Position numbers and translations under genes: made by a program. A DNA stretch of 64,000 nucleotides from Patescibacteria group bacterium (lineage in GTDB: Bacteria; Patescibacteriota; Minisyncoccia; Phycocordibacterales; UBA918), in the NCBI GenBank assembly GCA_019745315.1, contig JAIETH010000002.1, positions 32,654 to 96,653 of the forward strand, in the 5' to 3' direction. Below, one piece after another: positions 1 through 48,735 of the stretch (positions are counted from its first letter, which is position 1; each line of letters begins with the position of its first letter). The notes below the pieces were generated by a model that was given only the letters and a program-made list of their open reading frames with translations, was not told where the DNA came from and searched no databases.

Positions 1-282
1 TAGATGAGTACTTATTGCCTTCTACAGAGGCAGTGTGCGTTGAGGATATTTGAACTTGTGATCACGAGTCGCTAAGCAAAATACTTCGTATTTATGCTAA
101 GCGCTCGCGACCCCGGCTCGATTGTTTTTCTTTCAGAAAAACATATCTCCACATGGCACCAAGGACTCGTCTCTTACAGAGACAGTACCCGTTGAGGATA
201 TTTTTATCGCTAAAGCTCAAAAATATCTCGCAACGGTTTCGACCCCTAGTCGAAAGCAATCCCATTGCTTTCTTGCGCGCAC

Positions 283-310
283 AAAAAAACTGCCGTACGG
301 CAGTTTTTTT
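283..310. terminator. Perfect hairpin aaaaaaactgccGTACggcagttttttt with an A-run and a T-run on either side, so a bidirectional intrinsic terminator.
   Basis: Read directly: 12-bp stem around a GTAC loop, flanked by A7 and T7. It sits inside a larger palindrome built from tRNA-Ile 3'-end fragments. Confidence 0.6.
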
Positions 311-313
311 CTT

Positions 314-341
314 TGGTGCGCGCACTAGGGGTCGAACCTAG
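314..341 (-). repeat. Partial direct copy of the tRNA-Ile 3' end: T-arm, acceptor 3' strand and an encoded CCA.
   Basis: The reverse complement reads CTAGGTTCGACCCCTAGTGCGCGCACCA. It matches the 3' 28 nt of the intact tRNA at 518-590 and adds CCA. Confidence 0.6.
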
Positions 342-517
342 ATCATTACATGATCAGTACAGGTTTCTGATATTTTGATTCGCATAGCTCTCAAAATATC
401 TAGTAACCTTCTCTAACAGTTCACAGAACTATTAGAGCCTTTCGAGTGAGAAAGTGCGGGGCACTTTTGCAAGACTTTCTATGGCAAATTATTCTTTTTA
501 TTTTGTTGTGTACTTTG

Positions 518-590
518 TGCGCGCACTAGGGGTCGAACCTAGGACCTTTCGAGTATCAGTCGAATGCTCTACCAACTGAGCTATGCGCGC
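518..590 (-). tRNA. tRNA-Ile, anticodon GAU.
   Basis: The reverse complement folds as a canonical 73-nt cloverleaf: GCGCGCA acceptor, GCUC/GAGC D-arm, UUCGA/UCGAA anticodon stem with loop CUGAUAC giving anticodon GAU, and T-arm CUAGG-UUCGACC-CCUAG. CCA is not encoded. Confidence 0.85.
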
Positions 591-925
591 ACAAAACCTA
601 CAACTTTAAAATAAAAGGACAATTTGCCTAGAAAGTATACAGCTTCCGTAGGAAGTCAGTCGAATATTCCCCCAACCCTATTGCCGGCCCCCTAGGGCAT
701 CGGCAATTTCCTCCTATGGTCGGAACCGGATTCAAAGCAAAACTGTTTACTTTGAATAGCCAGCGCGCATTTTCGAAATACAATCCTTGAATAAATGGAT
801 GAGTATTGCTTCGAGATAGTATCAAAAATAGTACTTTATCGCAATGAAATTGTGATTTTGTATAGAAATCATAAAGGGCCGAAACGAATGTTCCGGCCCC
901 CTTCCATCTGCTCGCTTGCTGGCCA

Positions 926-1926: not shown

Positions 1927-3385
1927 ATTGGAATTAATCCACGACCAGCTTCCGCTAGCCGTGCCTTGTTACGACTTAGTCCCTGTCATCGAGTTTACCG
2001 TAAGCCTACACGAGGTAGGATTTCGGGCACTCCCGACTCCCTTGACTTGACGGGCGGTGAGTACAAGGCTCGGGAACGTATTCACCCCGGCGTTGCTGAT
2101 CCGGGATTACTAGCGATTCCGACTTCATGAGGGCGAGTTGCAGCCCTCAATCCGAACTGGGGGTACTTTTATAAGGATTTGCTCCACCTTACGGTATTGC
2201 GTCCTGTTGTGGTACCCATTGTATCACGAGTGCAGCCCAAGGCATCAAGGGACATGCGGACCTGGCGTCATCCTCACCTTCCTCCCCCGTGAGGGGGCAG
2301 TCTCGCCTGACAAATATAACAGGCAACGAGGGTTGCGTTCGTTTCCCCACTTAAGGGAACAACTCAAGCCACGAACTGACGACGGCCATGCATCACCTGC
2401 CATACACCCTCGAAGGCTTCCCCGGTTTCTCGGGGCGTGCAGTATGGTTTCTAGCCTTGGTAAGGTTCCTCGCTTAGCGACGAATTAAGCCTCATGATCC
2501 ACCGCTTGTGCGAGCCCCCGTCTATTCCTTTGAGTTTTAATCTTGCGATCGTACTTCCCAGGCGGCCCGCTTAACGCGTTAGCTTCGCCTCAGAGAGGGT
2601 CGATACTCCCTAAAGCTAGCGGGCAACGTTTAGGGCGTGGACTACCGGGGTATCTAATCCCGTTCGCTACCCACGCTTTCGTGTTTCAGTGTCAGGAATA
2701 CGCCAGTAAAGTGCCTTCGCATTTGGTGTTCCCCATGATATCAACGGATTTCACCCCTACACCATGAGTTCCCTTTACCTCTCGTATCCTCGAGCGTAGC
2801 CGTTTCCTCCGCGATTACCGGGTTAAGCCCGGTGATTTAACGGAAGACTAACTACGCCACCTACACACCCTTTACGCCCAGTAAATCCGGATAATGCTCG
2901 GGGCCTCTGTATTACCGCTCCTGCTGGCACAGAGTTAGGAGCCCCTTATTCATGAGGTAACGTCAAAATTTCCTCCCTCATAAAAGATGTTTACGTCCCT
3001 AAGGACTTCATCCATCACGCGGCGTCGCTCCGTCAGGCTTGCGCCCATTGCGGAAGATTCTCGACTGCAGCCTCCCGTAGGAGTATGGCCCGTGTCGCAG
3101 TGCCATCGGTGGGGGTCAGCCTCTCAGCTCCCCTACGCGTCGTAGCCTTGGTGAGCCATTACCTCACCAACTAGCTGATACGTCGCAGGCTGTTCCCAGA
3201 GCGATAAATCTTTACTCTCTCGAGACCATCACGTATTATCTCGCCTTTCGACGAGTTATTCGTGACTCTGGGGTACATACCTACGTGTTACTACCTCGTC
3301 TGCCATGGGTCTAAACCCATTCGACTTGCATGCCTCATCCACGCCGCCAGCATTCATCCTGAGCTAGGATCAAACTCTAATTTAA
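1927..3385 (-). rRNA. rrs: 16S ribosomal RNA, about 1.46 kb, with no large insertion.
   Basis: On the reverse complement there are universal landmarks: a 5' end ...AGAGTTTGATCCTAGCTCAG at about 3359-3378; a 515F-region variant TTACCGCTCCTGCTGGCAC; a 1492R-region GCCTTGTTACGACTT; and helix 45 with a GGAA tetraloop. The 3' tail reads GGAUUAAUUCCAAU rather than GGAUCACCUCCUUA. Confidence 0.9.
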
Positions 3386-7455: not shown

Positions 7456-7997
7456 TTTTCCATTTCTTCGAGGACGTGAGCCACGCTTTCCTTCAATTCT
7501 TCGAGAGAACCATTATTTTCAATACGAAAATCTGCTGTCTCCATTACCGCACGTGTATTTTGTTTTGAAGGATCATCTGAGTGAAGTTCTTTTTGCTGCT
7601 GCGCTATAAAATCTTCTTTGGTAACAAAATCTGTCTCACTCATGCGACCTTTGATGCGTTCATATCTAATTTCGGGATCAGCATCAACTGCGAGCACCAC
7701 TCCGCCCCTTTTTCGCAGAGCCTCTACTTCACCAAGTGTATAAATAGATTCAATGATCACATTGTCAGAAGAGGTGTGACGTGCAAGATACGTATCAACA
7801 ACATATGAGACACCGTGCTCTGCTCTGAGTTCATTGGCCAAGGCGCTAATGGAAGCTCGATCAAGTGGACTATTTCGCTCTTTAAGAATCTCTAAAAAAA
7901 GCTCGCGTGCTGAGCAATGGATAAAACCGTGCTCTTTGAGGAGGTCAACGACCGCTCCTTTCCCTGCCCCATGAGTACCTGCAATTCCTATGAGCAT
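7452..7997 (-). CDS. P-loop nucleoside or nucleotide kinase family protein.
   Basis: N-terminal Walker A motif GIAGTHGAGKG and the size and pattern of small NMP or dephospho-CoA-kinase-like proteins. Confidence 0.5.
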   Translation of the reverse strand: MLIGIAGTHGAGKGAVVDLLKEHGFIHCSARELFLEILKERNSPLDRASISALANELRAEHGVSYVVDTYLARHTSSDNVIIESIYTLGEVEALRKRGGVVLAVDADPEIRYERIKGRMSETDFVTKEDFIAQQQKELHSDDPSKQNTRAVMETADFRIENNGSLEELKESVAHVLEEMEK

Positions 7998-17839: not shown

Positions 17840-17948
17840 ATCTGGCGGCTACCTACTCTCCCTCTTGCGAAGTACCATCGGCGCTAGAAGGCTTAACTTC
17901 CGTGTTCGGAATGAGAACGGGTGTGACCCTTCCGCCAAACCACCAGAT
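17840..17948 (-). rRNA. rrf: 5S ribosomal RNA, 109 nt.
   Basis: The reverse complement AUCUGGUGGUUUGGCGGAAGGGUCACACCCGUUCUCAUUCCGAACACGGAAGUUAAGCCUUCUAGCGCCGAUGGUACUUCGCAAGAGGGAGAGUAGGUAGCCGCCAGAU aligns to the 5S consensus, including the CCGAAC and GUAC loop E regions and helix I. Confidence 0.85.
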
Positions 17949-18012
17949 TATAATGTTCGATTGTCAAAAGTATGGGGCGAACGGCGTAAAATAGTGCCCC
18001 ACACTATTTTAC

Positions 18013-18034
18013 CCCTTCCGCCAAACCACCAGAT
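18013..18034 (-). repeat. Partial 5S rRNA copy covering the first 22 nt of the 5S gene.
   Basis: A direct repeat of the 5S 5' end at 17927-17948. It is preceded by an 11-bp hairpin at about 17985-18010. Confidence 0.6.
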
Positions 18035-18293
18035 TTAAATATTTAATCTGTTGGAATTTAATATCAAGTGTAGTATTTTTGCAACTCAAAATCAAAACCT
18101 AAGCAACTCTATGAATGCATAGTATTCCTTGTCTTGAATCCTGAAATCGAAATTTGCATGACGATGTTCAGCATTCCTTACAGGAAATACATTCTATTAG
18201 TACACCTCGGCTCCGCATATTTCTATGCTTCCACCTGGTGCCTATCAACCTGATAATCTCTCAGGGAATTTAATGATTCCTCATCTTAGAACT

Positions 18294-18326
<33 letters not shown>

Positions 18327-18452
18327 ATTCCGAACGTAGCTACAGGGCAATGCCGCTGGCGCGACAGCCCTCAGACCAGAGGTTCGTTCATCCCGGTCCT
18401 CTCGTACTAGGGACAAATTTCCTCAAGAATCGACGCCTGCAGTAGATAGGAG

Positions 18453-18486
<34 letters not shown>

Positions 18487-18561
18487 GCGTAACTTTTTAA
18501 TTGGCGAACAGCCAAACCCTTGGGACCTGCTCCAGCCCCAGGATAAGTTGAGCCGACATCG

Positions 18562-18927
18562 CTGTCATTTTTCCCACATTACTGTGAGGATCGGACTATA
18601 TCTTCATCCATACGTAATTTCGCATGGAGATCGGCGTGTAGTCTCTACGGGATCATGTACCAATATGCTTTCGGAATGAAATTAATCTGAAATTGATACT
18701 GACTTCCCACGGTATTGTCCACCTTCTCATTCTCTCTTACGAGAGCGGCTGATGTGGAGTTCACCGTTATAGCCAATTTGTTTTTGTACGGCATTACTGC
18801 CATAGGCACCCCGATGTATTTCGTTTGTTCTATATGGACTTTCGTCCATACAATCTTCGCTCACTCGGTCATGCAAAAGTAAACTTTTGCGCGACGCTCA
18901 TTCGCTTGATTGTAACTACATAAGTTA
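18562..18927 (-). ncRNA. Group I intron of 366 nt in 23S domain V, inserted after the U equivalent to E. coli U2500. It carries no ORF.
   Basis: Exon continuity GGCACCU|...|CGAUGUCGG. The 5' exon ends in U and the intron ends in G. The core sequences GUAGAGACUACACGCC and AAGAUAUAGUCCGAUCC resemble group I P7/J8-7. Confidence 0.65.
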
Positions 18928-19495
18928 AGGTGCCGAACCGTGCCGTCGCTATGGACGCTTGGGCACGACTAGCCTGTTATCCCCAGGGTAACTTTTATCG
19001 GGTAATCTCCGGCCGCATCTAACGCGTACCATCGGTTCACTATGCTCCGCTTTCGCGTCTGCTTGGCATCTACGCCTTACAGTCAAGCTGGCTTATGCCA
19101 TTACACTATCGGCACGGTTTCCATTCGCGCCTAGCCAACCTTGAGACCCCTCCGTTACTTTTTAGGAGGGTAGCGCCCCACTAAAACTGCCTACCACGCA
19201 CTGTCTCAGCATGATTTTTTCATGCTGGTTAGAAACTGCCCGAGTAAAGAATGGTATTTCACTGACGAGTCCACACTTCCCAAAAGAAATGCTTCAACCT
19301 CTCCCATCTATTCTACGCATCACAAGAACAGCCTCAATACGAAGCTACAGTAAAGCTCCTGGGGTCTTTTCGTCTAACTGCAGGTACCCGGCATCTTCAC
19401 CGGGATTGTATTTTCACCGAGCAAGTCCTTGAGACAGTTCCCCAGTCATTACGCCATTCGTGCACGTCGGAACTTACCCGACAAGGAATTGCGCT

Positions 19496-19722
19496 CTTCT
19501 ATTCCTCAAAGAAGGACTCTGTCTTCGTCCGTCCGCATAGGCGACTAAGGACGCGTGACATCTGGTCTCTTTGTGGTCACGTTTTGACTAAGCGTACATC
19601 TCTGTACGCAAGGTAGCTTTTTGAATGATCATCTACGTATCTCTCATAGATGAATTTGCGTCCATTTACCAATCCATAATCGTTCCAGTCATTCGGTTCA
19701 CTTCATTACTGAAATGAACCGA
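19496..19722 (-). ncRNA. Insertion of 227 nt in 23S domain IV at the L1931-equivalent site. It is a candidate small group I intron or intervening sequence.
   Basis: Helix 69 is intact (AGCGAUAACUAUAAUCGUU). The exon reads CUAAGGU|...|AGCGCAAUUCC. The insert begins with U-exon, ends with G, and contains CCUUAG, which is complementary to the 5' exon. Confidence 0.5.
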
Positions 19723-22106
19723 ACCTTAGAACGATTATAGTTATCGCTGACATTGACCGGGGCTTACATAGCCCAGCAGTACAGATTGCTCCATACCACC
19801 TTCCATGTTTAACCTTCCGGCATTGGTCAGGCGTCACCCCCTATACATCCACTTACGTGTTCGCAGGGAGCTGTGTTTTTGGTAAACAGTTGCCAGGGAA
19901 TCTTTCGCTGCGGCCTCTCACCTTGCGGCGAGGAGGCAGGCCTTATCCCGAAGTTACGGCCGCTTTTTTGCCGAGTTCCTTAAGGACCTCTCACTCGTTC
20001 GCCTTGGTCTACTCGACCTGATCACCTGTGTCGGTTTGCGGTACGGAACCGTTTTGTGTAACGTAGAAGTTTTTCTTGGAAGCGTGCTCCCACAATTGAC
20101 GTGTCCGAAGACACATCTTCAGGTTCAACTCGGATGTGCATTAAAGCAGAAGTGCGGATTTACCTACACCTCACCCTCGAAGCACCAACGAAAATCCAGT
20201 AATTCGTTTGAAGTACAACCCTCCGTCCCTCCATAGAAACAAAACGGTGTTATGGAATATTAACCATATGTCCATCGCCTCCCCCGTTCGGGATCGGCTT
20301 AGGCCCGACTAACCCTTGGCTGATCACCATCGCCAAGGAAACCTTGATCTTTCGGCGGGAGGGGCTCTCACCCTCCTTGCGGTTACTTGTGCCGGCATTC
20401 TCACTTCCATACGCTCCAAGTCGGGTCTCCCCTCCTCTTCATCGCAGAATGGAACGCTCTCCTACCACTTACTCTGTACGAATACAGAGCAAATCCGCAG
20501 TTTCGGTACTATGCTTGAGCCCCGATCATCTTCGGCGCAGAAACTCTCGACGAGTGAGCTGTTACGCTATCTTTAAAGGATGGCTGCTTCTAAGCCAACC
20601 TCCTCGCTGTCAATGAATTTCCACCTCCTCAAGTTGCACTGAGCATAGATTTAGGGACCTTAACTGGCGATCTGGGCTGTTTCCCTTTTGACCAATGGAG
20701 CTTATCCCCCATAGTCTAACTGCCGTGTTTTTAATCCTTGGTATTCGGAGTTTGATAGGTCCCACGAGATTTCTCCCTGTTGGGACCTTCCAGTGCTCTA
20801 CCCCCAAGGGGAACACACGACGCCAACCCAAAAGCTGTTTCGGAGAGAACCAGCTATTACGGAATTCGATTAGCTTTTCACTCCTTACCACAAGTCATCC
20901 GATGGTTTTGTACGGCCAACCGGTTCGGGCCTCCCCTTATCTTTCGATAAGGTTCACCCTGCTCATGGCAAGCTCATCCCGCTTCGGGTCGCATTCTATC
21001 CCTTATAATTTCGCGCTATTAACACTCGCTTTCGCTCTGCCTCCGGGGGTCGTCCCCTTAGACGAAGGAATACAATGCACTCGCCGGCTCATTCTTCAAT
21101 AGGCACGCGGTCACCAGACTTACGTCCAGCTCCCACTCTTTGTAGGCATACGGTTTCAGATCTATTTCACTGTCCTCACCGGACTGTTTTTCACCTTTCC
21201 CTCACGGTACTCGTTCACTATCGGTCTCTTAAAATATTTAGCCTTAGGAGTTAGTGCTCCCAGATTCATTCGAGCTATTCATGTCTCGAACTACTCAGGA
21301 ACGACAACAAGAAAGTAGTATTGATTTCGTATACGGGACTATTACCCACTGGGGTCACGCTTTCCAGCGTGTTCTACTACCAATACTTTTTGTAACTTTC
21401 CTCAACTAAATGAAGTTGCCGCCCTACAACCCCGACTATGTAAACACAATCGGTTTGGGCTGATCCCGTTTCGCTCGCCGCTACTAAGGGAATCGCAAGT
21501 GTCTTCTTCCTGACTATAATGGCTCCGCCAGTTGGCAGAATTTAGCCAGAAAGAAAACACCTTGTATTGCTTTCTTTTCCTCCAGGTACTGAGATGTTTC
21601 ACTTCCCTGGGTATGCAAATGTCTTACGACAAATCTCTATCGTAGATAGAGGGGTTTCCCCATTCGGAGATCCTCGGTTATAACGATTGCTTGGCATCTT
21701 ACCGAGGCTTATCGCAGCCATGCCACGTCCTTCTTCGCTTTTAAGAGCCTAGGCATCCACCGTACGCCCTTCATTCCTGTAAGGAATGCTAGACACCGTT
21801 TAAGGCACTTTCCATTCCATTACATGAATACTAAACACCGCTGTTTAGATTTTGATTTTTGTTGTTGTTCGCATGACACACACTCTGACGAAAAGACCCT
21901 CTTTAAAGACATGTGTGCACCATGCGTCACGTGTATGCAACAAAACATACACGATTGCTCGATACTTCCTACATGATATTAAATTTTCAACGAGCGAGTG
22001 TCCCGTATAAGGACTAAAAAAACCGCTTTGAGCGGAGAGAGAAACCCACAGAGAGTCCAACTTCCGCTTACAGGTTTTTATAGTTACTCATAGACACGTA
22101 GCCGCC

Positions 22107-45183: not shown

Positions 45184-48100
45184 TTATACCAAGGTCACTC
45201 GATATGTTCGTTGATCAAGAGTGAGGGCTTCTCCGTCAGAAGAATCAAAACGAATATCTGTAGCATTCACCGTACGTGCAATCATATCTCTATACTCTGC
45301 CACTATGCTCTGACCCTCTCCATCAGTGTCTACAACAAGAACAATACCGTCTTGTGGCGCGTACCCTGACTGCTTTCGTAATTCTTGAATATGGCGCATA
45401 AGATCTCGCACCTCCCCTTCACGCGCGAGTTCTGGTGTGATCTCTGAATCAAGGGCAACCTCGCTTAATAGGGACTGGTCTTCTACGATCTGTTTTACAT
45501 TCACCTCTTCCTTGATCAATATGAGAAGATCTTCTGTATTTAAATACTCAGCACTCTTGATGCGAAGTGTTTGAAGAGGCTGACGAACTTTTACTCCCAC
45601 CTCATTACGAGCCTCAAGCGCCAAAGATACAACATCTCGTACTTTTTGCATTGCGCGCAAATCTTCTTCTTTTGGAGAAATTGAAATTGAAGGCCATGAT
45701 GCAAGGTGCACACTTATAGGATCAGCTTCTTCGCGCACAACTTGGAATAGGTGCTCAGCAAAAAACGGCATCGCCGGAGCCATCACAAGTGATAGCGTTT
45801 TAAGAATATAACGAAGCGTTGCAAGTGTTGCTCGTTGATCTTCCTCTCCCCCATACTTCAATCGCTCACGTGAGCGTCGCAAATACCACACCGAGAGATC
45901 GTCAATAAAGCCAGTAATTGGTCGCGTTGCTCGATCAAGCTCATACTCTTCCATACCGAGAGTTACATCCGCGACCACCTCTGACATCCGCATCAATATC
46001 CACGTATCAAGTACATGTGTTGAACCAAGCGCTTCTCCTGCTGGCACATCAGACTCTTTATACAACTCATAGAATGAAAGCACATTAGCCAAACGACCAA
46101 TGTTTTTGCGCCCAAGCTCAGCAAGACTTTTTTCAGAAAAGTTAAGATCTTCACCTCGAATGATTGGAGACGAGAGTAGATAAAAACGAAGTGTGTCTGC
46201 GCCATAGACATCAACAACATCCATGGGATCAGGATAGTTTTTTAGCTTCTTTGACATCTTGCGCCCGTCTTCAGCTAACACCAATCCGTTCACAATAACG
46301 TTCTTATATGGCGATCTTCCAAAAAGAGCTGTTCCAAGTACGATAAGAGAATAAAACCACCCACGAGTTTGATCTACTCCTTCCGCAATAAAATCAGCAG
46401 GATACCCTATTTCTTTCTCTGGGTTAAAACGATCAGTATTTTCAAATGGATAATGCTGTTCTCCATATGGCATCGAGCCCGATTCAAACCAACAGTCAAA
46501 TACATCTGGTACGCGTACGAGTGTTTCTCCATCAGTATCTAGAAGTTTAATTTCATCAATATACGGGCGGTGATAATCAAGTTCGTAATTTCGATTATGC
46601 GGCAATGGTACAAACTGAAGCTCTCGCACCTCTGCATTTGTAAAATACTCGCCTGAGTTACGCATCAGTTCGGTCTTATCTATATCTGCACCGAGAGCCA
46701 CCGACTCAAGTCCAAAGAGAGGCCCTGCGTGACTAATGATAAGGATATTCTTGCCCTTAAACTTCGCATCAATATCATAGAGAAATTCACCCACCCTTTT
46801 CTGTACATCCCGACGATTTTCAAGATTCCCAATTTTTGTGAGATATCGTGATTTCCAATCAGGAAAAAGTGCACTGTGTTCTGCCCATGTCTTCCCTTCA
46901 AAATCAGGACCGATCTGCATTTCACCAATTCGATCGTCTTCAATCATCGCTGAATCAGGAAGGTTAAAATGTTTCTGCAAAATTTCTGCAGTTTGTTTTG
47001 TGCGCTCGTAACCAGAGTGGATGATGAGATCGATTTTTTTATCTTTGTACTCTCCCGCAACCTTCTCTACCTGCTCTATCCCTTTTTGTGTCAAAGGATT
47101 GTGAGCCTCCTTTTTGGTACTTACTACGTCAGCCGCATTGCTTTCAGCTTCGCCGTGACGCATGAGGAAATACTGATTACCAGACTTTGGCACATGTGAC
47201 GCAAGCTCCTCGAGTGAGCCAAATACTTTATAGGTATTTGCTTTTTTGTTTTTCCATACCGGAAGCGGTGCTCCCCAATACCGCTGACGAGAGACCGCCC
47301 AATCACGTGCGCCCTCAAGCCAATTTCCAAAACGAGCTGAACCAATATGTTCTGGCACCCATCCAACTTTCGAATTTTCTTCTACGAGCTTATCTTTAAA
47401 ATCGGTAACCCGCACAAACCATGAAGACGTTGCATAGTTAAGAAGTGGTGTCTCACAACGCCAACAGTGCGGATAGCTGTGCACAATGTTTTCTTTTCCA
47501 AAAAGGCGTCCGCGCTCTTTAAGCATCTTTAAGATCAAAACATCTGCATCGGTATGAAGAATGCTCTTCTCAGAATCATCTTTCGGCTTCACAGGGCGCC
47601 CAGAGAGATCAGTAATATGCGACATGAAGTTCCCTTCTGTATCTACATGATGTACTACTGGAATTTCTTCCTTTTGTGCAAGAACAAGATCTTCTTCTCC
47701 GTATGCAGGAGCCAAATGCACTGCGCCTGTTCCGCTTTCAAGTGTTACATAATCAGCATGATAAATTTTCCATGCATTTGTTTTATTCTCTATATCGCGA
47801 TCAGCATAATATTCAAATGGAGGTATGTATGATTTTCCAACTAACTCTGAACCCTTAAACTCTTCCACTATTGAATAGTCTTCAGTCCCGAGCTGAGAAA
47901 TTCGCTCTTTCGCAAGAATAACAAAATCTTTTTTCCCTTCTAGAGAAACTTCAACCTTTACATACTCGTGGTCATTATGAACGGCAGCTGCCATATTGCC
48001 TGGAAGCGTCCACGGTGTAGTTGTCCACACAAGAAGAGACGTATCAGTCACCTCGCGAGCCTCATCCAGAAGCGGAAGCTTCACAGTAACCGCAATATCT

Positions 48101-48735
48101 TTTATATCTTTATAGCCCTGGTTTACTTCAAAGTTTGAAAGTGTGGTGCCGCAACGGGGGCAGAAGTGCATGGACTTAAATCCTTCGTATACCAACCCTT
48201 TTTTATTAAGCTCAGAAAAAACCCACCACACACTTTCAGTGTATGACGCATCCATTGTCTTATAGTCATCGTCCATATCAGCCCAACGACCGAGGCGCGG
48301 AATGATACGCTTCCAATCATCCGCATACTCCATCACAGTATCAGCACATGCTTGATTGAATTTCTCTACCCCAAGCTCTTCAATATCTCTTTTAGTAGCA
48401 AGTCCGAGCTTTTTCTCGATGATGTTTTCAAGAGGGAGTCCGTGACAGTCCCATCCCCACTTACGAGTGACATGATATCCGCGCATCGTTCTATAGCGTG
48501 GAATGGTGTCCTTAATAGTTCCTGCAAGAATATGTCCGTGATGCGGAAGCCCAGTTGCAAACGGTGGCCCGTCATAAAAAACGTATTCACCAAGCGGAGA
48601 TTCTTTTTCTAATGACTTTTCAAAAATCTTTTCTGTATTCCAAAACGCAAGAACAGCTTCCTCACGCAAAGCGACATCACTCACCTTTTTTTCTGTTGTA
48701 GTATCTGGTGTTTTTTCCATAACAAATCCCCCCAC
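45184..48735 (-). CDS. ileS: Isoleucine--tRNA ligase (type 2) with an inserted histidine-phosphatase (PGAM-like) domain.
   Basis: Shows HIGH (PHHGHIL), the editing domain, WCISR-like RDWAVSRQRYWG, KMSKK and the C-terminal domains. About 195 extra residues with LMRHGEAESN and ILIISHAGPL motifs are inserted between PLPVW and YHRPYIDE. The likely true start is MEKTP at 48720. Confidence 0.85.
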   Translation of the reverse strand: MGGFVMEKTPDTTTEKKVSDVALREEAVLAFWNTEKIFEKSLEKESPLGEYVFYDGPPFATGLPHHGHILAGTIKDTIPRYRTMRGYHVTRKWGWDCHGLPLENIIEKKLGLATKRDIEELGVEKFNQACADTVMEYADDWKRIIPRLGRWADMDDDYKTMDASYTESVWWVFSELNKKGLVYEGFKSMHFCPRCGTTLSNFEVNQGYKDIKDIAVTVKLPLLDEAREVTDTSLLVWTTTPWTLPGNMAAAVHNDHEYVKVEVSLEGKKDFVILAKERISQLGTEDYSIVEEFKGSELVGKSYIPPFEYYADRDIENKTNAWKIYHADYVTLESGTGAVHLAPAYGEEDLVLAQKEEIPVVHHVDTEGNFMSHITDLSGRPVKPKDDSEKSILHTDADVLILKMLKERGRLFGKENIVHSYPHCWRCETPLLNYATSSWFVRVTDFKDKLVEENSKVGWVPEHIGSARFGNWLEGARDWAVSRQRYWGAPLPVWKNKKANTYKVFGSLEELASHVPKSGNQYFLMRHGEAESNAADVVSTKKEAHNPLTQKGIEQVEKVAGEYKDKKIDLIIHSGYERTKQTAEILQKHFNLPDSAMIEDDRIGEMQIGPDFEGKTWAEHSALFPDWKSRYLTKIGNLENRRDVQKRVGEFLYDIDAKFKGKNILIISHAGPLFGLESVALGADIDKTELMRNSGEYFTNAEVRELQFVPLPHNRNYELDYHRPYIDEIKLLDTDGETLVRVPDVFDCWFESGSMPYGEQHYPFENTDRFNPEKEIGYPADFIAEGVDQTRGWFYSLIVLGTALFGRSPYKNVIVNGLVLAEDGRKMSKKLKNYPDPMDVVDVYGADTLRFYLLSSPIIRGEDLNFSEKSLAELGRKNIGRLANVLSFYELYKESDVPAGEALGSTHVLDTWILMRMSEVVADVTLGMEEYELDRATRPITGFIDDLSVWYLRRSRERLKYGGEEDQRATLATLRYILKTLSLVMAPAMPFFAEHLFQVVREEADPISVHLASWPSISISPKEEDLRAMQKVRDVVSLALEARNEVGVKVRQPLQTLRIKSAEYLNTEDLLILIKEEVNVKQIVEDQSLLSEVALDSEITPELAREGEVRDLMRHIQELRKQSGYAPQDGIVLVVDTDGEGQSIVAEYRDMIARTVNATDIRFDSSDGEALTLDQRTYRVTLV

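Follow-up and report, generated by a model that had tools for sequence, protein, structure and literature searches.

Integrative elements that target tRNA genes duplicate the 3′ end of the tRNA at attL and attR, and they have non-autonomous derivatives such as the CIMEs of Streptococcus. Small structured repeats of bacteria include the REP/BIME, BOX, RUP and Correia elements and the Rickettsia palindromic elements, and how most of them move is unknown. Among Archaea, Nanoarchaeum and the Thermoproteales carry split and multi-intron tRNA genes, with intron 'transposition' among tRNA positions. The leader–trailer stems of rRNA precursors are RNase III substrates, and tRNA-Ile(GAU) is normally encoded in the spacer of an rRNA operon. 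GOLLD and ROOL are large ornate RNAs that lie beside tRNAs or enclose them. The group I introns found within Patescibacteria tRNA genes interrupt the anticodon loop at 35/36 (PMC13011429). Here, the tRNA-Ile(GAU) locus of a Patescibacteria group bacterium (GenBank assembly GCA_019745315.1, contig JAIETH010000002.1, positions 32,654 to 96,653 of the forward strand) was analyzed; this whole stretch of 64,000 nucleotides (nt), with a GC content of 44.8%, is called the window, and positions are given within it. The repeated tRNA-Ile fragments seen near its start most likely mark the place where two copies of a structured, non-coding repeat meet, a repeat that belongs to the tRNA-Ile(GAU) locus in a Patescibacteria clade.

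We read this repeat as a locally proliferating, non-autonomous structured element derived from the pre-tRNA-Ile scaffold, and the chance of this reading is put at about even. In the repeat unit, a short hairpin termed H1 and the motif C(A/U)GUAC are followed by H2, which is a long AU-rich helix, and then by a linker and a further hairpin, H3. In its full form, H2 is the leader–trailer stem of pre-tRNA-Ile with the tRNA at its tip (window 655–447 and loci L008, L069 and L031), and in its empty form the tRNA has been lost with about 10 nt of its 5′ end left in the H2 loop, as in the elements termed type 1 and free modules of about 90 nt. The reading is built on the observed architecture of the locus, its conservation and covariation, the homology of full and empty forms and the difference between strains. 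For comparison, 38 genome contigs with the 3′ end of this tRNA, all of them metagenome-assembled genomes of Patescibacteria, and about 45 tRNA-Ile loci overall were used; compared loci carry L numbers.

The intact tRNA-Ile(GAU) reported at 518–590 in the first-pass annotation was confirmed by ARAGORN and Rfam as a gene read from 590 to 518 on the minus strand (the tools place it at 517/518–590). It is the sole tRNA in the window, and no second tRNA, tmRNA or tRNA-like gene was called by ARAGORN or the Rfam tRNA clan. BLAST of the tRNA against the whole window revealed that tRNA positions 49–73 are copied exactly at 341–317 (E 3e-9), beyond which weaker similarity (84%) reaches 358, equal to tRNA position 31. 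Additional pieces were found at 656–676 (tRNA positions 15–35, 81%), at 433–447 (positions 37–51, 87%) and, on the plus strand, at 381–390 (positions 4–13, exact). Repeats at this locus exceed chance. The 3′-end copy, which had been described as exact with an encoded CCA at 314–341, is real as a 29-nt direct repeat (313–341 versus 514–542) with one mismatch (28/29 nt), but the 'encoded CCA' is that single mismatch (TTG versus TTT) and no extra insertion. An inverted copy had also been placed at 232–281; within it, TTCGACCCCTAGT at 238–250 is the exact 13-nt reverse complement of 324–336 and 525–537, whereas the acceptor copy at 274–282 is equally direct or inverted because GTGCGCGCAC is a perfect palindrome by itself, which leaves its orientation ambiguous.

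An older tRNA-Ile gene, now disrupted, has its 3′ end at 314–341, and its halves (769–656 and 447–314) enclose the intact tRNA. The first interpretation is supported in that the duplicated end is a displaced tRNA 3′ end and that a tRNA-Ile gene has been interrupted by inserted DNA. In the direction of the tRNA, the parts of this nest are as follows.

Positions 816–844, minus strand: likely promoter of the tRNA-Ile unit, with −35 TTGCGA (844–839), a 17-nt spacer and TG-extended −10 TACTAT (821–816), read from the sequence.
Positions 656–769, minus strand: 5′ part of the outer tRNA-Ile, with GCGCGC (769–764), two inserted hairpins and tRNA positions ~15–35 ending AUUCGACUGA (665–656); BLAST identity is 81% at 676–656.
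Positions 591–655, minus strand: leader X, with hairpin H1 (655–643, loop UAC), CUGUAUAC (642–635) and the 5′ strand of the leader–trailer helix, from minimum free energy (MFE) folds and the duplex with the trailer.
Positions 518–590, minus strand: intact tRNA-Ile(GAU), CCA not encoded, called by ARAGORN and matching the Rfam tRNA model with 74.2 bits.
Positions 448–517, minus strand: trailer Y, with the 3′ strand of the leader–trailer helix followed by the hairpin AAAGUGC-CCC-GCACUUU (467–451), from folds and the duplex.
Positions 438–447, minus strand: outer tRNA-Ile positions 37–46 (ACUCGAAAGG), the start of the outer 3′ half, from a direct repeat and BLAST (37–51 at 447–433, 87%).
Positions 342–437, minus strand: partial hairpin module C at the variable-loop position of the outer tRNA, from a covariance-model match and fold.
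Positions 314–341, minus strand: 3′ end of the outer tRNA-Ile, with the whole T-arm, acceptor 3′ strand, discriminator A and encoded CCA, from the direct repeat and BLAST.
Positions 283–310, no strand assigned: bidirectional hairpin resembling an intrinsic terminator, with A7, a 7-bp GC-rich stem and T7, from a repeat search and folds.

The last of these is, as had been noted, a perfect hairpin, a 14+14 palindrome. In most loci, an equivalent terminator hairpin of other sequence separates tRNA-Ile from type 1; it is weak or missing in L004 and L033. Module C comprises, in plus-strand coordinates, H1 (341–355), AGTAC (356–360), H2 (361–409) and an extra hairpin (411–437); its H2 contains the tRNA 5′ remnant CGCATAGCTC (exact 10-nt match at 381–390), and it matches the covariance model at 339–415 on the minus strand (40.6 bits, E 2e-8, model positions 41–116).

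The outer gene is placed in relation to relatives by its promoter. The segment 844–816 probably functions as a promoter, though it falls below the threshold of a consensus scan. The block around it (850–813) has 84% identity to L055 792–829 and aligns with equivalent blocks of L069 and L059, and similar blocks are readable upstream of tRNA-Ile in L064 and L067; a sigma-70-like site at 663–634 overlaps leader X. The distance from the promoter block to the intact tRNA is about 220 nt in the window versus roughly 45 nt in L055, and the outer 5′ part begins at a promoter distance similar to that of the real tRNA of L055, L064 and L067. Since L055, the closest relative for type 1, has a promoter, a single tRNA-Ile with encoded CCA, a terminator and type 1 in the same order, 314–341 was marked as the ancestral gene end. 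The outer copy itself cannot function, because the joined pieces lack U36 and their D-stem is broken or degenerate.

Nesting was found with both sides in the window, L008 and L031, with the 5′ side only in L069/L071 and with the 3′ side in L022, where the contig ends before the 5′ side. In the window (676–656), L059, L008 and L069/L071, the intact tRNA has a partial 5′ copy ending AUUCGACUGA on its upstream side, and in L031 a more diverged one (GGGCGACUGA). The break right behind the anticodon of the outer tRNA recurs in L008, L022 and L031. Partial tRNA-Ile copies flank the intact gene at 10/45 intact-tRNA loci scanned, a count including L010, whose only match, 297 nt downstream, may be chance.

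The whole series of 5′ half, leader, tRNA, trailer and 3′ half might instead be one selected ornate precursor, a 'tRNA within a tRNA-shaped shell', in which the shell, once the inner tRNA has been excised, would serve a separate function such as that of a two-piece tRNA-like RNA. The 493-nt stretch 775–283 on the minus strand has an MFE fold of −193.5 kcal/mol (z = −11.1) that is closed by the outer acceptor halves, which speaks for such a shell. The outer 5′ part keeps most of its ~115 nt columns between the window and L069, with compensatory changes in the hairpins, and is far better conserved than the adjoining spacer, and, compared with the MurD of L059, those of the window and of L069 each reach only 66% identity. 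In the window, L022 and L031, the sequence of the outer halves has also stayed identical to that of the inner tRNA. On the other side, a plain tRNA-Ile gene is present in many relatives (L055, L064, L067 and most of L001–L038), L069 lacks the outer 3′ half, the outer T-arm has diverged in L008, and the degenerate D-arm and missing U36 in the window leave no working tRNA. A selected shell is therefore considered improbable.

Type 1 is an element of about 135 nt with three hairpins, placed past tRNA-Ile and the hairpin terminator. Its consensus on the tRNA strand is GUGCGCGCA, H3, CUAGGGGUCGAA, AU-rich H2, GUACUG and H1 with a GUA loop, and in about half of the copies it ends in GACCCCUAGUGCGCGCAC, sometimes with CCA. 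The window holds one such copy.

Positions 149–282, minus strand (the tRNA strand; either strand may be the expressed one): copy B of the type 1 structured element, with a covariance-model match of 124.1 bits (E 5e-31).

On the tRNA strand, copy B is composed of GUGCGCGCA (282–274), H3 (272–252), CUAGGGGUCGAA (249–238), H2 (236–189), GUACU (188–184) and H1 (183–169, loop GUA), and finishes in a degenerate tRNA-like 3′ end (168–149). About ten of the 38 genome loci with the same tRNA 3′ end carry type 1. The start of type 1 is complementary to the tRNA 3′ end, and because the latter lies on the other side of the terminator, a palindrome arises across it. This palindrome of about 110 bp had been taken as a possible scar; it does fold strongly (205–360, −69.4 kcal/mol on the plus and −72.4 kcal/mol on the minus strand; z = −9.5 and −8.6, respectively), but it is the conserved start of type 1 and occupies the same position in many genomes. 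A conserved structured arrangement in relatives that does not resemble att sites, the outcome that had been named as speaking against a scar, is thus what was observed for the inverted copy and the palindrome.

The hairpins of type 1 covary. A covariance model, R1, was built from 11 copies; at E < 1e-6 it detected 16 copies, which come from the window and 12 loci (13 sources in all), and it found more in L059 and L064; all covariance-model matches of the 64-kb window fall within 1–660. RNAalifold gave compensatory changes at 20/28 pairs in the plus-strand alignment and 21/32 in the tRNA-strand alignment. In the alignment of 16 copies, 93.8% of cells were paired and 24/32 pairs change on both sides. 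The covariation score was 0.611 versus 0.167 for shuffles (0/500 reach 0.611) and 0.07–0.14 for slid controls (maximum 0.141), and pairs covaried in all three hairpins (H3, 9/9; H2, 7/7; H1, 5/5). A pseudoknot between the H1 loop and the linker was dropped, as covariation was absent. No Rfam 15 family was matched by type 1, either across the whole window at the gathering threshold or in 1–900 at E ≤ 10. Within 1–900, only the tRNA reaches its gathering score; the other matches, searched to E ≤ 10, fall far below their own gathering scores, mostly with E ≥ 0.1, with the exception of Plastid-ycf2 (E 2.9e-5), which lies on the antisense strand of the tRNA and is also below its gathering score. 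Neither a D-arm nor an anticodon arm was seen in the folds or the alignment of type 1. The literature searched contained no description of the element; PMC13011429 concerns introns in tRNAs of Patescibacteria instead.

The relation between type 1 and the intact tRNA became apparent from the helix that carries the latter. In the window, the intact tRNA stands at the tip of a leader–trailer helix of ~45 bp with 43 Watson–Crick and 4 G·U pairs (z = −5.8), and 28–44 Watson–Crick leader–trailer pairs with the tRNA at the tip were counted across the window, L059, L008, L069 and L031. The helix sequences are unrelated between lineages, and the pairing and layout are the same in the window, L008, L069 and L031. 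In L008, the arms TTGGATATTTTGT and ACAAAATATCTCAA flank the whole tRNA-Ile on the tRNA strand. The H2 of type 1 in L029 is made of the same arms, TTGGATATTTTGT and ACAAAATATCTCAA, separated there by 11 nt and located on the opposite strand from the tRNA, indicating that type 1 is an inverted, tRNA-less copy of the tRNA-carrying scaffold. Remnants of the tRNA 5′ end are retained in the H2 loops of type 1 copies; in the window, 381–390 is exactly CGCATAGCTC. Judged by these arms, the full and empty forms are homologous.

Type 1 could alternatively be a free-standing functional small RNA that mimics tRNA-Ile. Its outermost, acceptor-like helix (P1) would copy the acceptor stem and stack on P2, an extended T-stem-like helix, with ends that copy the local tRNA-Ile and sometimes its CCA; the mimic would be released from read-through transcripts by RNase P and 3′ processing and would act via enzymes that bind tRNAs or by base pairing to the 3′ end of the tRNA. 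The conserved and covarying architecture across lineages is in line with this proposal. So is L064, where the tRNA-Ile acceptor is GCGCGUU/AACGCGC and both tandem type 1 copies have matching ends: as these ends match a differing acceptor, the ends of type 1 appear to be kept in step with the local tRNA, P1 and P2 changing along with it. The elements of L020 and L030 end ...GCGCGCACCA followed by a terminator of their own, the tRNA strand folds better by minimum free energy in 9/11 type 1 copies, and G·U pairs exceed A·C pairs on that strand. The proposal is nevertheless unlikely. Only about 5/11 copies have an intact tRNA-distal strand in the acceptor-like helix, and in copy B this strand is degenerate; a terminator lies between type 1 and the tRNA with no promoter visible, only about one quarter of the genomes with an identical tRNA have type 1 and the close strains L059 and L067 are without it, and in L008 the homologous helix works on the opposite strand.

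The locus differs between nearly identical strains. L059 was reached through a 99% identical pilin-like protein, and its flanks are 98–99% identical to the window; an exact-protein look-up of the two genes nearest the locus returned only a 944-nt Logan contig. In L059, a complete 85-nt H3-H2-H1 module replaces window 461–463 (3 nt) inside the trailer hairpin, copy B of type 1 is absent and the terminator is different. The uninterrupted trailer hairpin was read as ancestral, because L008, L022 and L031 keep a hairpin at this place with different stem sequences. Neither terminal inverted repeats nor a target duplication was present at the L059 insertion. The earlier suggestion of a small non-autonomous element therefore held: a gene-less element is involved, and it is polymorphic between near-identical strains.

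Further copies were found in other arrangements. L067 is also without type 1, and tandem type 1 copies are present in L030 and L064. In L012 (5100–5260), a free H3-H2-H1 module of ~95 nt adjoins tRNA-Leu(CAG). A 27-nt direct repeat, which takes in the 3′ end of this tRNA, flanks the module, and the H3 sequence of the module is almost identical to the H3 of the L059 insertion. In L008, a module lies within the 5′ half of tRNA-Ile, between positions 24 and 26, replacing 1 nt. The window starts within another copy.

Positions 1–51, minus strand: partial module A, cut by the window start, with H1 (17–31) and part of H2 (40–51), from direct repeats and a weak covariance-model match (17–86, minus strand).

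Equivalents of module A are found at L059 2459–2512 and L067 7727–7795, and the family of direct repeats in the window comprises 23–51, 175–203 and 347–375.

Such variation would also be expected of functionless debris, in which the palindrome GTGCGCGCAC, the symmetric T-arm and the long palindromic terminators provoke unequal crossing-over as well as template switching in replication. Long, perfect palindromes are present, tandem copies have duplicated terminators, and elements are fused at shared GUGC ends, as between copy B and the type 2 element of the window (see below); the stems are nearly all Watson–Crick with little strand asymmetry, and the locus varies between strains. Neutral debris does not account well for three hairpins that survive complete sequence turnover between lineages whose MurD proteins are only 62–78% identical to that of L059, or for an idiosyncratic architecture that is the same in at least 13 genomes, and streamlined genomes are expected to delete neutral sequence. 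This explanation is accordingly regarded as quite unlikely.

MurD provides a further observation on this region. L059 and L061/L062 have MurD proteins that are 99% identical and neighborhoods that differ: in L059, the EVE gene is directly beside murD and the tRNA-Ile locus, and in L061/L062 the order is YcaO, nitroreductase, EVE, NUDIX and murD, without tRNA-Ile. The murD region appears to be recombinationally active as well.

The duplicated 3′ end had been proposed in the first-pass annotation to be an att scar, in which an integrase-bearing island or prophage entered the tRNA-Ile 3′ end and decayed, leaving attL and attR. The 29-nt direct repeat of the tRNA 3′ end brackets the insert with an intact tRNA at one end, as in att sites, identity breaks in the T-loop or anticodon loop, where tRNA-targeting integrases cross over, and presence and absence differ among genomes. 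No other sign of site-specific integration was found. No integrase, transposase or reverse transcriptase was detected by Pfam in 40 of the 58 largest open reading frames (ORFs) of the window, and no integrase-like neighbor gene was seen in 11 other loci from ORF translations and Pfam gene tables (these ORFs were not Pfam-scanned), where MurD-like and NUDIX-like genes are present. A look upstream of the window start had been recommended; in L059, the 2.46 kb leftwards contains as called genes only an EVE-domain protein and MurD, with no called gene between them and a small lipoprotein-like ORF read by eye. Three pattern scans and one blastn search of viral contigs and GenBank phages gave nothing real, and two pattern matches of the viral scan carried neither a covariance-model match nor a tRNA. 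The DNA between the repeats is only 172 bp and is itself a conserved structured unit. Upstream of the intact gene there is also a 5′ tRNA half, a feature that does not result from integration, and the module occurs in both orientations with pieces of different tRNAs at its sides. The att scar is largely refuted by the present evidence and is very improbable.

Several other candidates were tried and rejected. For a group I intron, no Intron_gpI match was found in 1–900 (E ≤ 10), and the 5′ piece ends ...CUGA and the insert ...UUCUC. An archaeal-type split or multi-intron tRNA was judged by the outer pieces of the window, which when joined have no U36 and a broken D-stem. Against tmRNA or permuted tmRNA, the acceptor starts with three pairs that are all G-C/C-G and include no G·U, and ARAGORN was negative. 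Cores of hammerhead, twister and other ribozymes were absent from the sequence, and no partner gene of a T-box, a retron or an IscB-type guide RNA was seen nearby. TTAC and TCAA motifs of IS200/IS605-type ends occur in an unsuitable geometry, the complementarity suggestive of a retroviral-type primer-binding site is explained by the inverted duplication, and TIGR arrays do not match in unit size and layout.

A locally proliferating repeat derived from the pre-tRNA-Ile scaffold would have shaped the locus as follows. The ancestral order was L055-like, with promoter, tRNA-Ile with CCA, terminator and an inverted empty unit. A full unit now splits the anticodon loop of the old tRNA and a partial module its variable loop, and the old 3′ end (314–341) still adjoins the old terminator (283–310) and the old type 1 (282–149). 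The unit would be transcribed from the promoter at 844–816 to the terminator, and the tRNA would be freed by RNase P and RNase Z, perhaps after an RNase III cut of the long helix. Empty units may multiply or become rearranged within the locus, either through recombination between their shared GTGCGCGCAC-type ends or through a trans-acting enzyme that requires hairpins; in the latter case, the hairpins would be kept by compensatory change because the propagating enzyme would require them.

Several points weigh against this account. Most loci were picked by their shared tRNA 3′ end, and the sample is therefore biased. Transcription, the expressed strand and processing are all deduced from the DNA letters, no promoter is obvious on either strand of most type 1 copies, and the match of GCGCGC (769–764) to the outer 5′ acceptor is weak, consisting only of a palindromic hexamer. 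On the tRNA strand, G·U versus A·C pairs number 12 versus 4 outside P1 and 6 versus 4 within the three hairpins, which is a mild excess, and strand asymmetry is absent from the active leader–trailer helices by duplex energies and G·U counts. As to movement, no source copy of the L059 insertion was found, and module copies were seen only within about 1 kb of tRNA-Ile or tRNA-Leu, unlike those of a dispersed mobile element. Terminal inverted repeats and regular target duplications, as expected of miniature inverted-repeat transposable elements, were not found for the module, and the differences between L059 and the window could reflect allele replacement by homologous recombination rather than transposition. 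A stronger version of the proposal is offered tentatively and is more doubtful than the general one: the locus may represent a new kind of small, gene-less, hairpin-defined unit from the pre-tRNA-Ile scaffold, in which the full form delivers tRNA-Ile into a resident anticodon loop, the empty form of ~90–135 nt moves within the locus, and the hairpins are kept for propagation or for tRNA-Ile maturation.

A second element adjoins copy B.

Positions 55–159, minus strand: type 2 element (CTTGTGATCAC ... CGCGACCCCGGCTCG ... hairpin ... CATGGCAC), fused to the end of type 1 copy B, from recurrence in relatives.

A degenerate T-arm had been suggested at 108–120; the sequence concerned, CGACCCCGGCTCG, is instead part of this conserved element. 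Type 2 stands beside tRNA-Ile in at least eight other loci (L009, L012, L013, L018, L024, L025, L059 at 2533–2665 and L067 at ~7640–7745), sometimes in two copies, with the consensus CTTGTGRTCAC ... CGCGACCCCGGCTCG ... hairpin ... CATGGCWCC...GCAC. Its GGUCRS/SYGACC pairing has G·U on the tRNA strand.

Other sequences with similarity to the locus were recorded. In L031, 2744–2769 on the minus strand, a window-type tRNA-Ile 3′ fragment (GTGCGCGCACTAGGGGTCGAACCTAGGACCTTTC) abuts a gene start; the tRNA-Ile of L031 itself has a different acceptor (CACGCGC), and the fragment may be foreign. A metagenome search with the pattern TTCGACCCCTAGN{18,45}GCGCGCAC returned 16 loci, only 3 of which were real (L049, L052 and L055), and the remainder were rejected as high-GC chance matches or unrelated soil sequence. 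The soil contigs L044, L046, L048 and L050 carry TTCGACCCCTAG, a GC-rich stretch of ~42 nt that is likely a hairpin, and TGCGCGCAC; this insert occupies the T-stem/acceptor junction, as H3 does, in a context that is not Patescibacteria-like, and it could be chance or an unrelated tRNA-like sequence.

Beyond the locus, a perfect sigma-70 promoter (1231–1204, minus strand; TTGACA, 16 nt, TG-TATAAT) precedes the gene at 1165–926, which encodes a hydrophobic-looking protein of 79 aa, probably a membrane protein, and the divergent gene at 1283–1666 is T4SS-pilin-like. In L059, this gene pair (926–1666) and the tRNA-Ile locus are syntenic, and in L064, L067 and L069 the locus has a pilin-like gene and a small ORF beside it. 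The rRNA genes of the window (17840–21783 and 1927–3385, minus strand) are unlinked, with 14.8 kb between 16S and 23S-5S, and most ORFs scanned in this gap have housekeeping Pfam matches. The 23S gene spans 3609 nt versus 2925 nt for the model, with one group I intron called (18572–18823) and further insertions likely. At 45184–48735 on the minus strand, a class I aminoacyl-tRNA synthetase of 1183 aa with Anticodon_1 and DUF5915 was read as resembling isoleucyl-tRNA synthetase; a histidine-phosphatase domain (His_Phos_1, residues 523–692) is inserted between its two catalytic-domain-model stretches.

If the proposed origin from the pre-tRNA-Ile scaffold is true, an essential single-copy tRNA gene of minimal genomes lies inside a rapidly changing nest that is made up of fragments of the gene itself and of a conserved structured repeat. 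For annotation, tRNA 3′ fragments in such genomes should then not be taken as borders of prophages or islands. With respect to tRNA biology, the maturation of tRNA-Ile may start from a long processing helix like those of rRNA, and with respect to mobile elements, a non-coding module appears to enter tRNA loops with no recombinase found nearby. The covariance model represents a motif absent from Rfam, whether RNA or DNA, and is applicable across all Patescibacteria genomes.

The locus resembles several known systems, namely att duplications, structured repeats, archaeal split tRNAs and rRNA-type stems, and fits none of them. As in tRNA-targeting integrative elements, the tRNA 3′ end is duplicated and the original end displaced beyond the insert, breaks fall in the T-loop and anticodon loop, and the insert has no genes of its own. 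Unlike in these elements, the insert is only ~170–210 bp and carries a whole replacement tRNA in a processing helix, a 5′ half is left upstream with no integrase found nearby, and the module occurs at several tRNA positions in both orientations. The Patescibacteria group I introns (PMC13011429) occur in the same phylum, and the outer tRNA-Ile is broken at about 35–37; however, an Intron_gpI match is absent in 1–900, the 5′ exon would end in A and not U, and a tRNA forms the core of the insert. Similar to GOLLD and ROOL, the locus is structured, non-coding and linked to a tRNA, which is embedded in places, whereas neither was matched among the Rfam hits listed, the element is much smaller and a phage context is absent.

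The interruptions after the anticodon, at the junction of D-arm and anticodon arm, in the variable loop and in the T-loop recall the archaeal split and intron-containing tRNAs, as do related inserts at differing positions and complementary flanks that join the pieces. In contrast to the archaeal genes, the host is a bacterium, and the copy that is interrupted has degenerated, its work being done by a separate, intact tRNA. The repeat unit shares with REP/BIME, BOX, RUP, Correia and the Rickettsia palindromic elements a size of ~90–135 nt, a non-coding, modular and hairpin-rich make-up, a variable copy number and the ability to insert in other genetic elements, RNA genes included. It differs from them in being confined to the tRNA-Ile (and tRNA-Leu) locus, in the absence of terminal inverted repeats and regular target duplication, and in stems that are wholly different between lineages yet paired and are homologous to the pre-tRNA leader–trailer helix. 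Finally, as in rRNA-type stems, a mature RNA stands at the tip of a long leader–trailer helix whose pairing is kept while its sequence varies; here, however, the helix carries a single tRNA outside any rRNA operon, the rRNA genes being unlinked, and empty copies of the helix persist and multiply.

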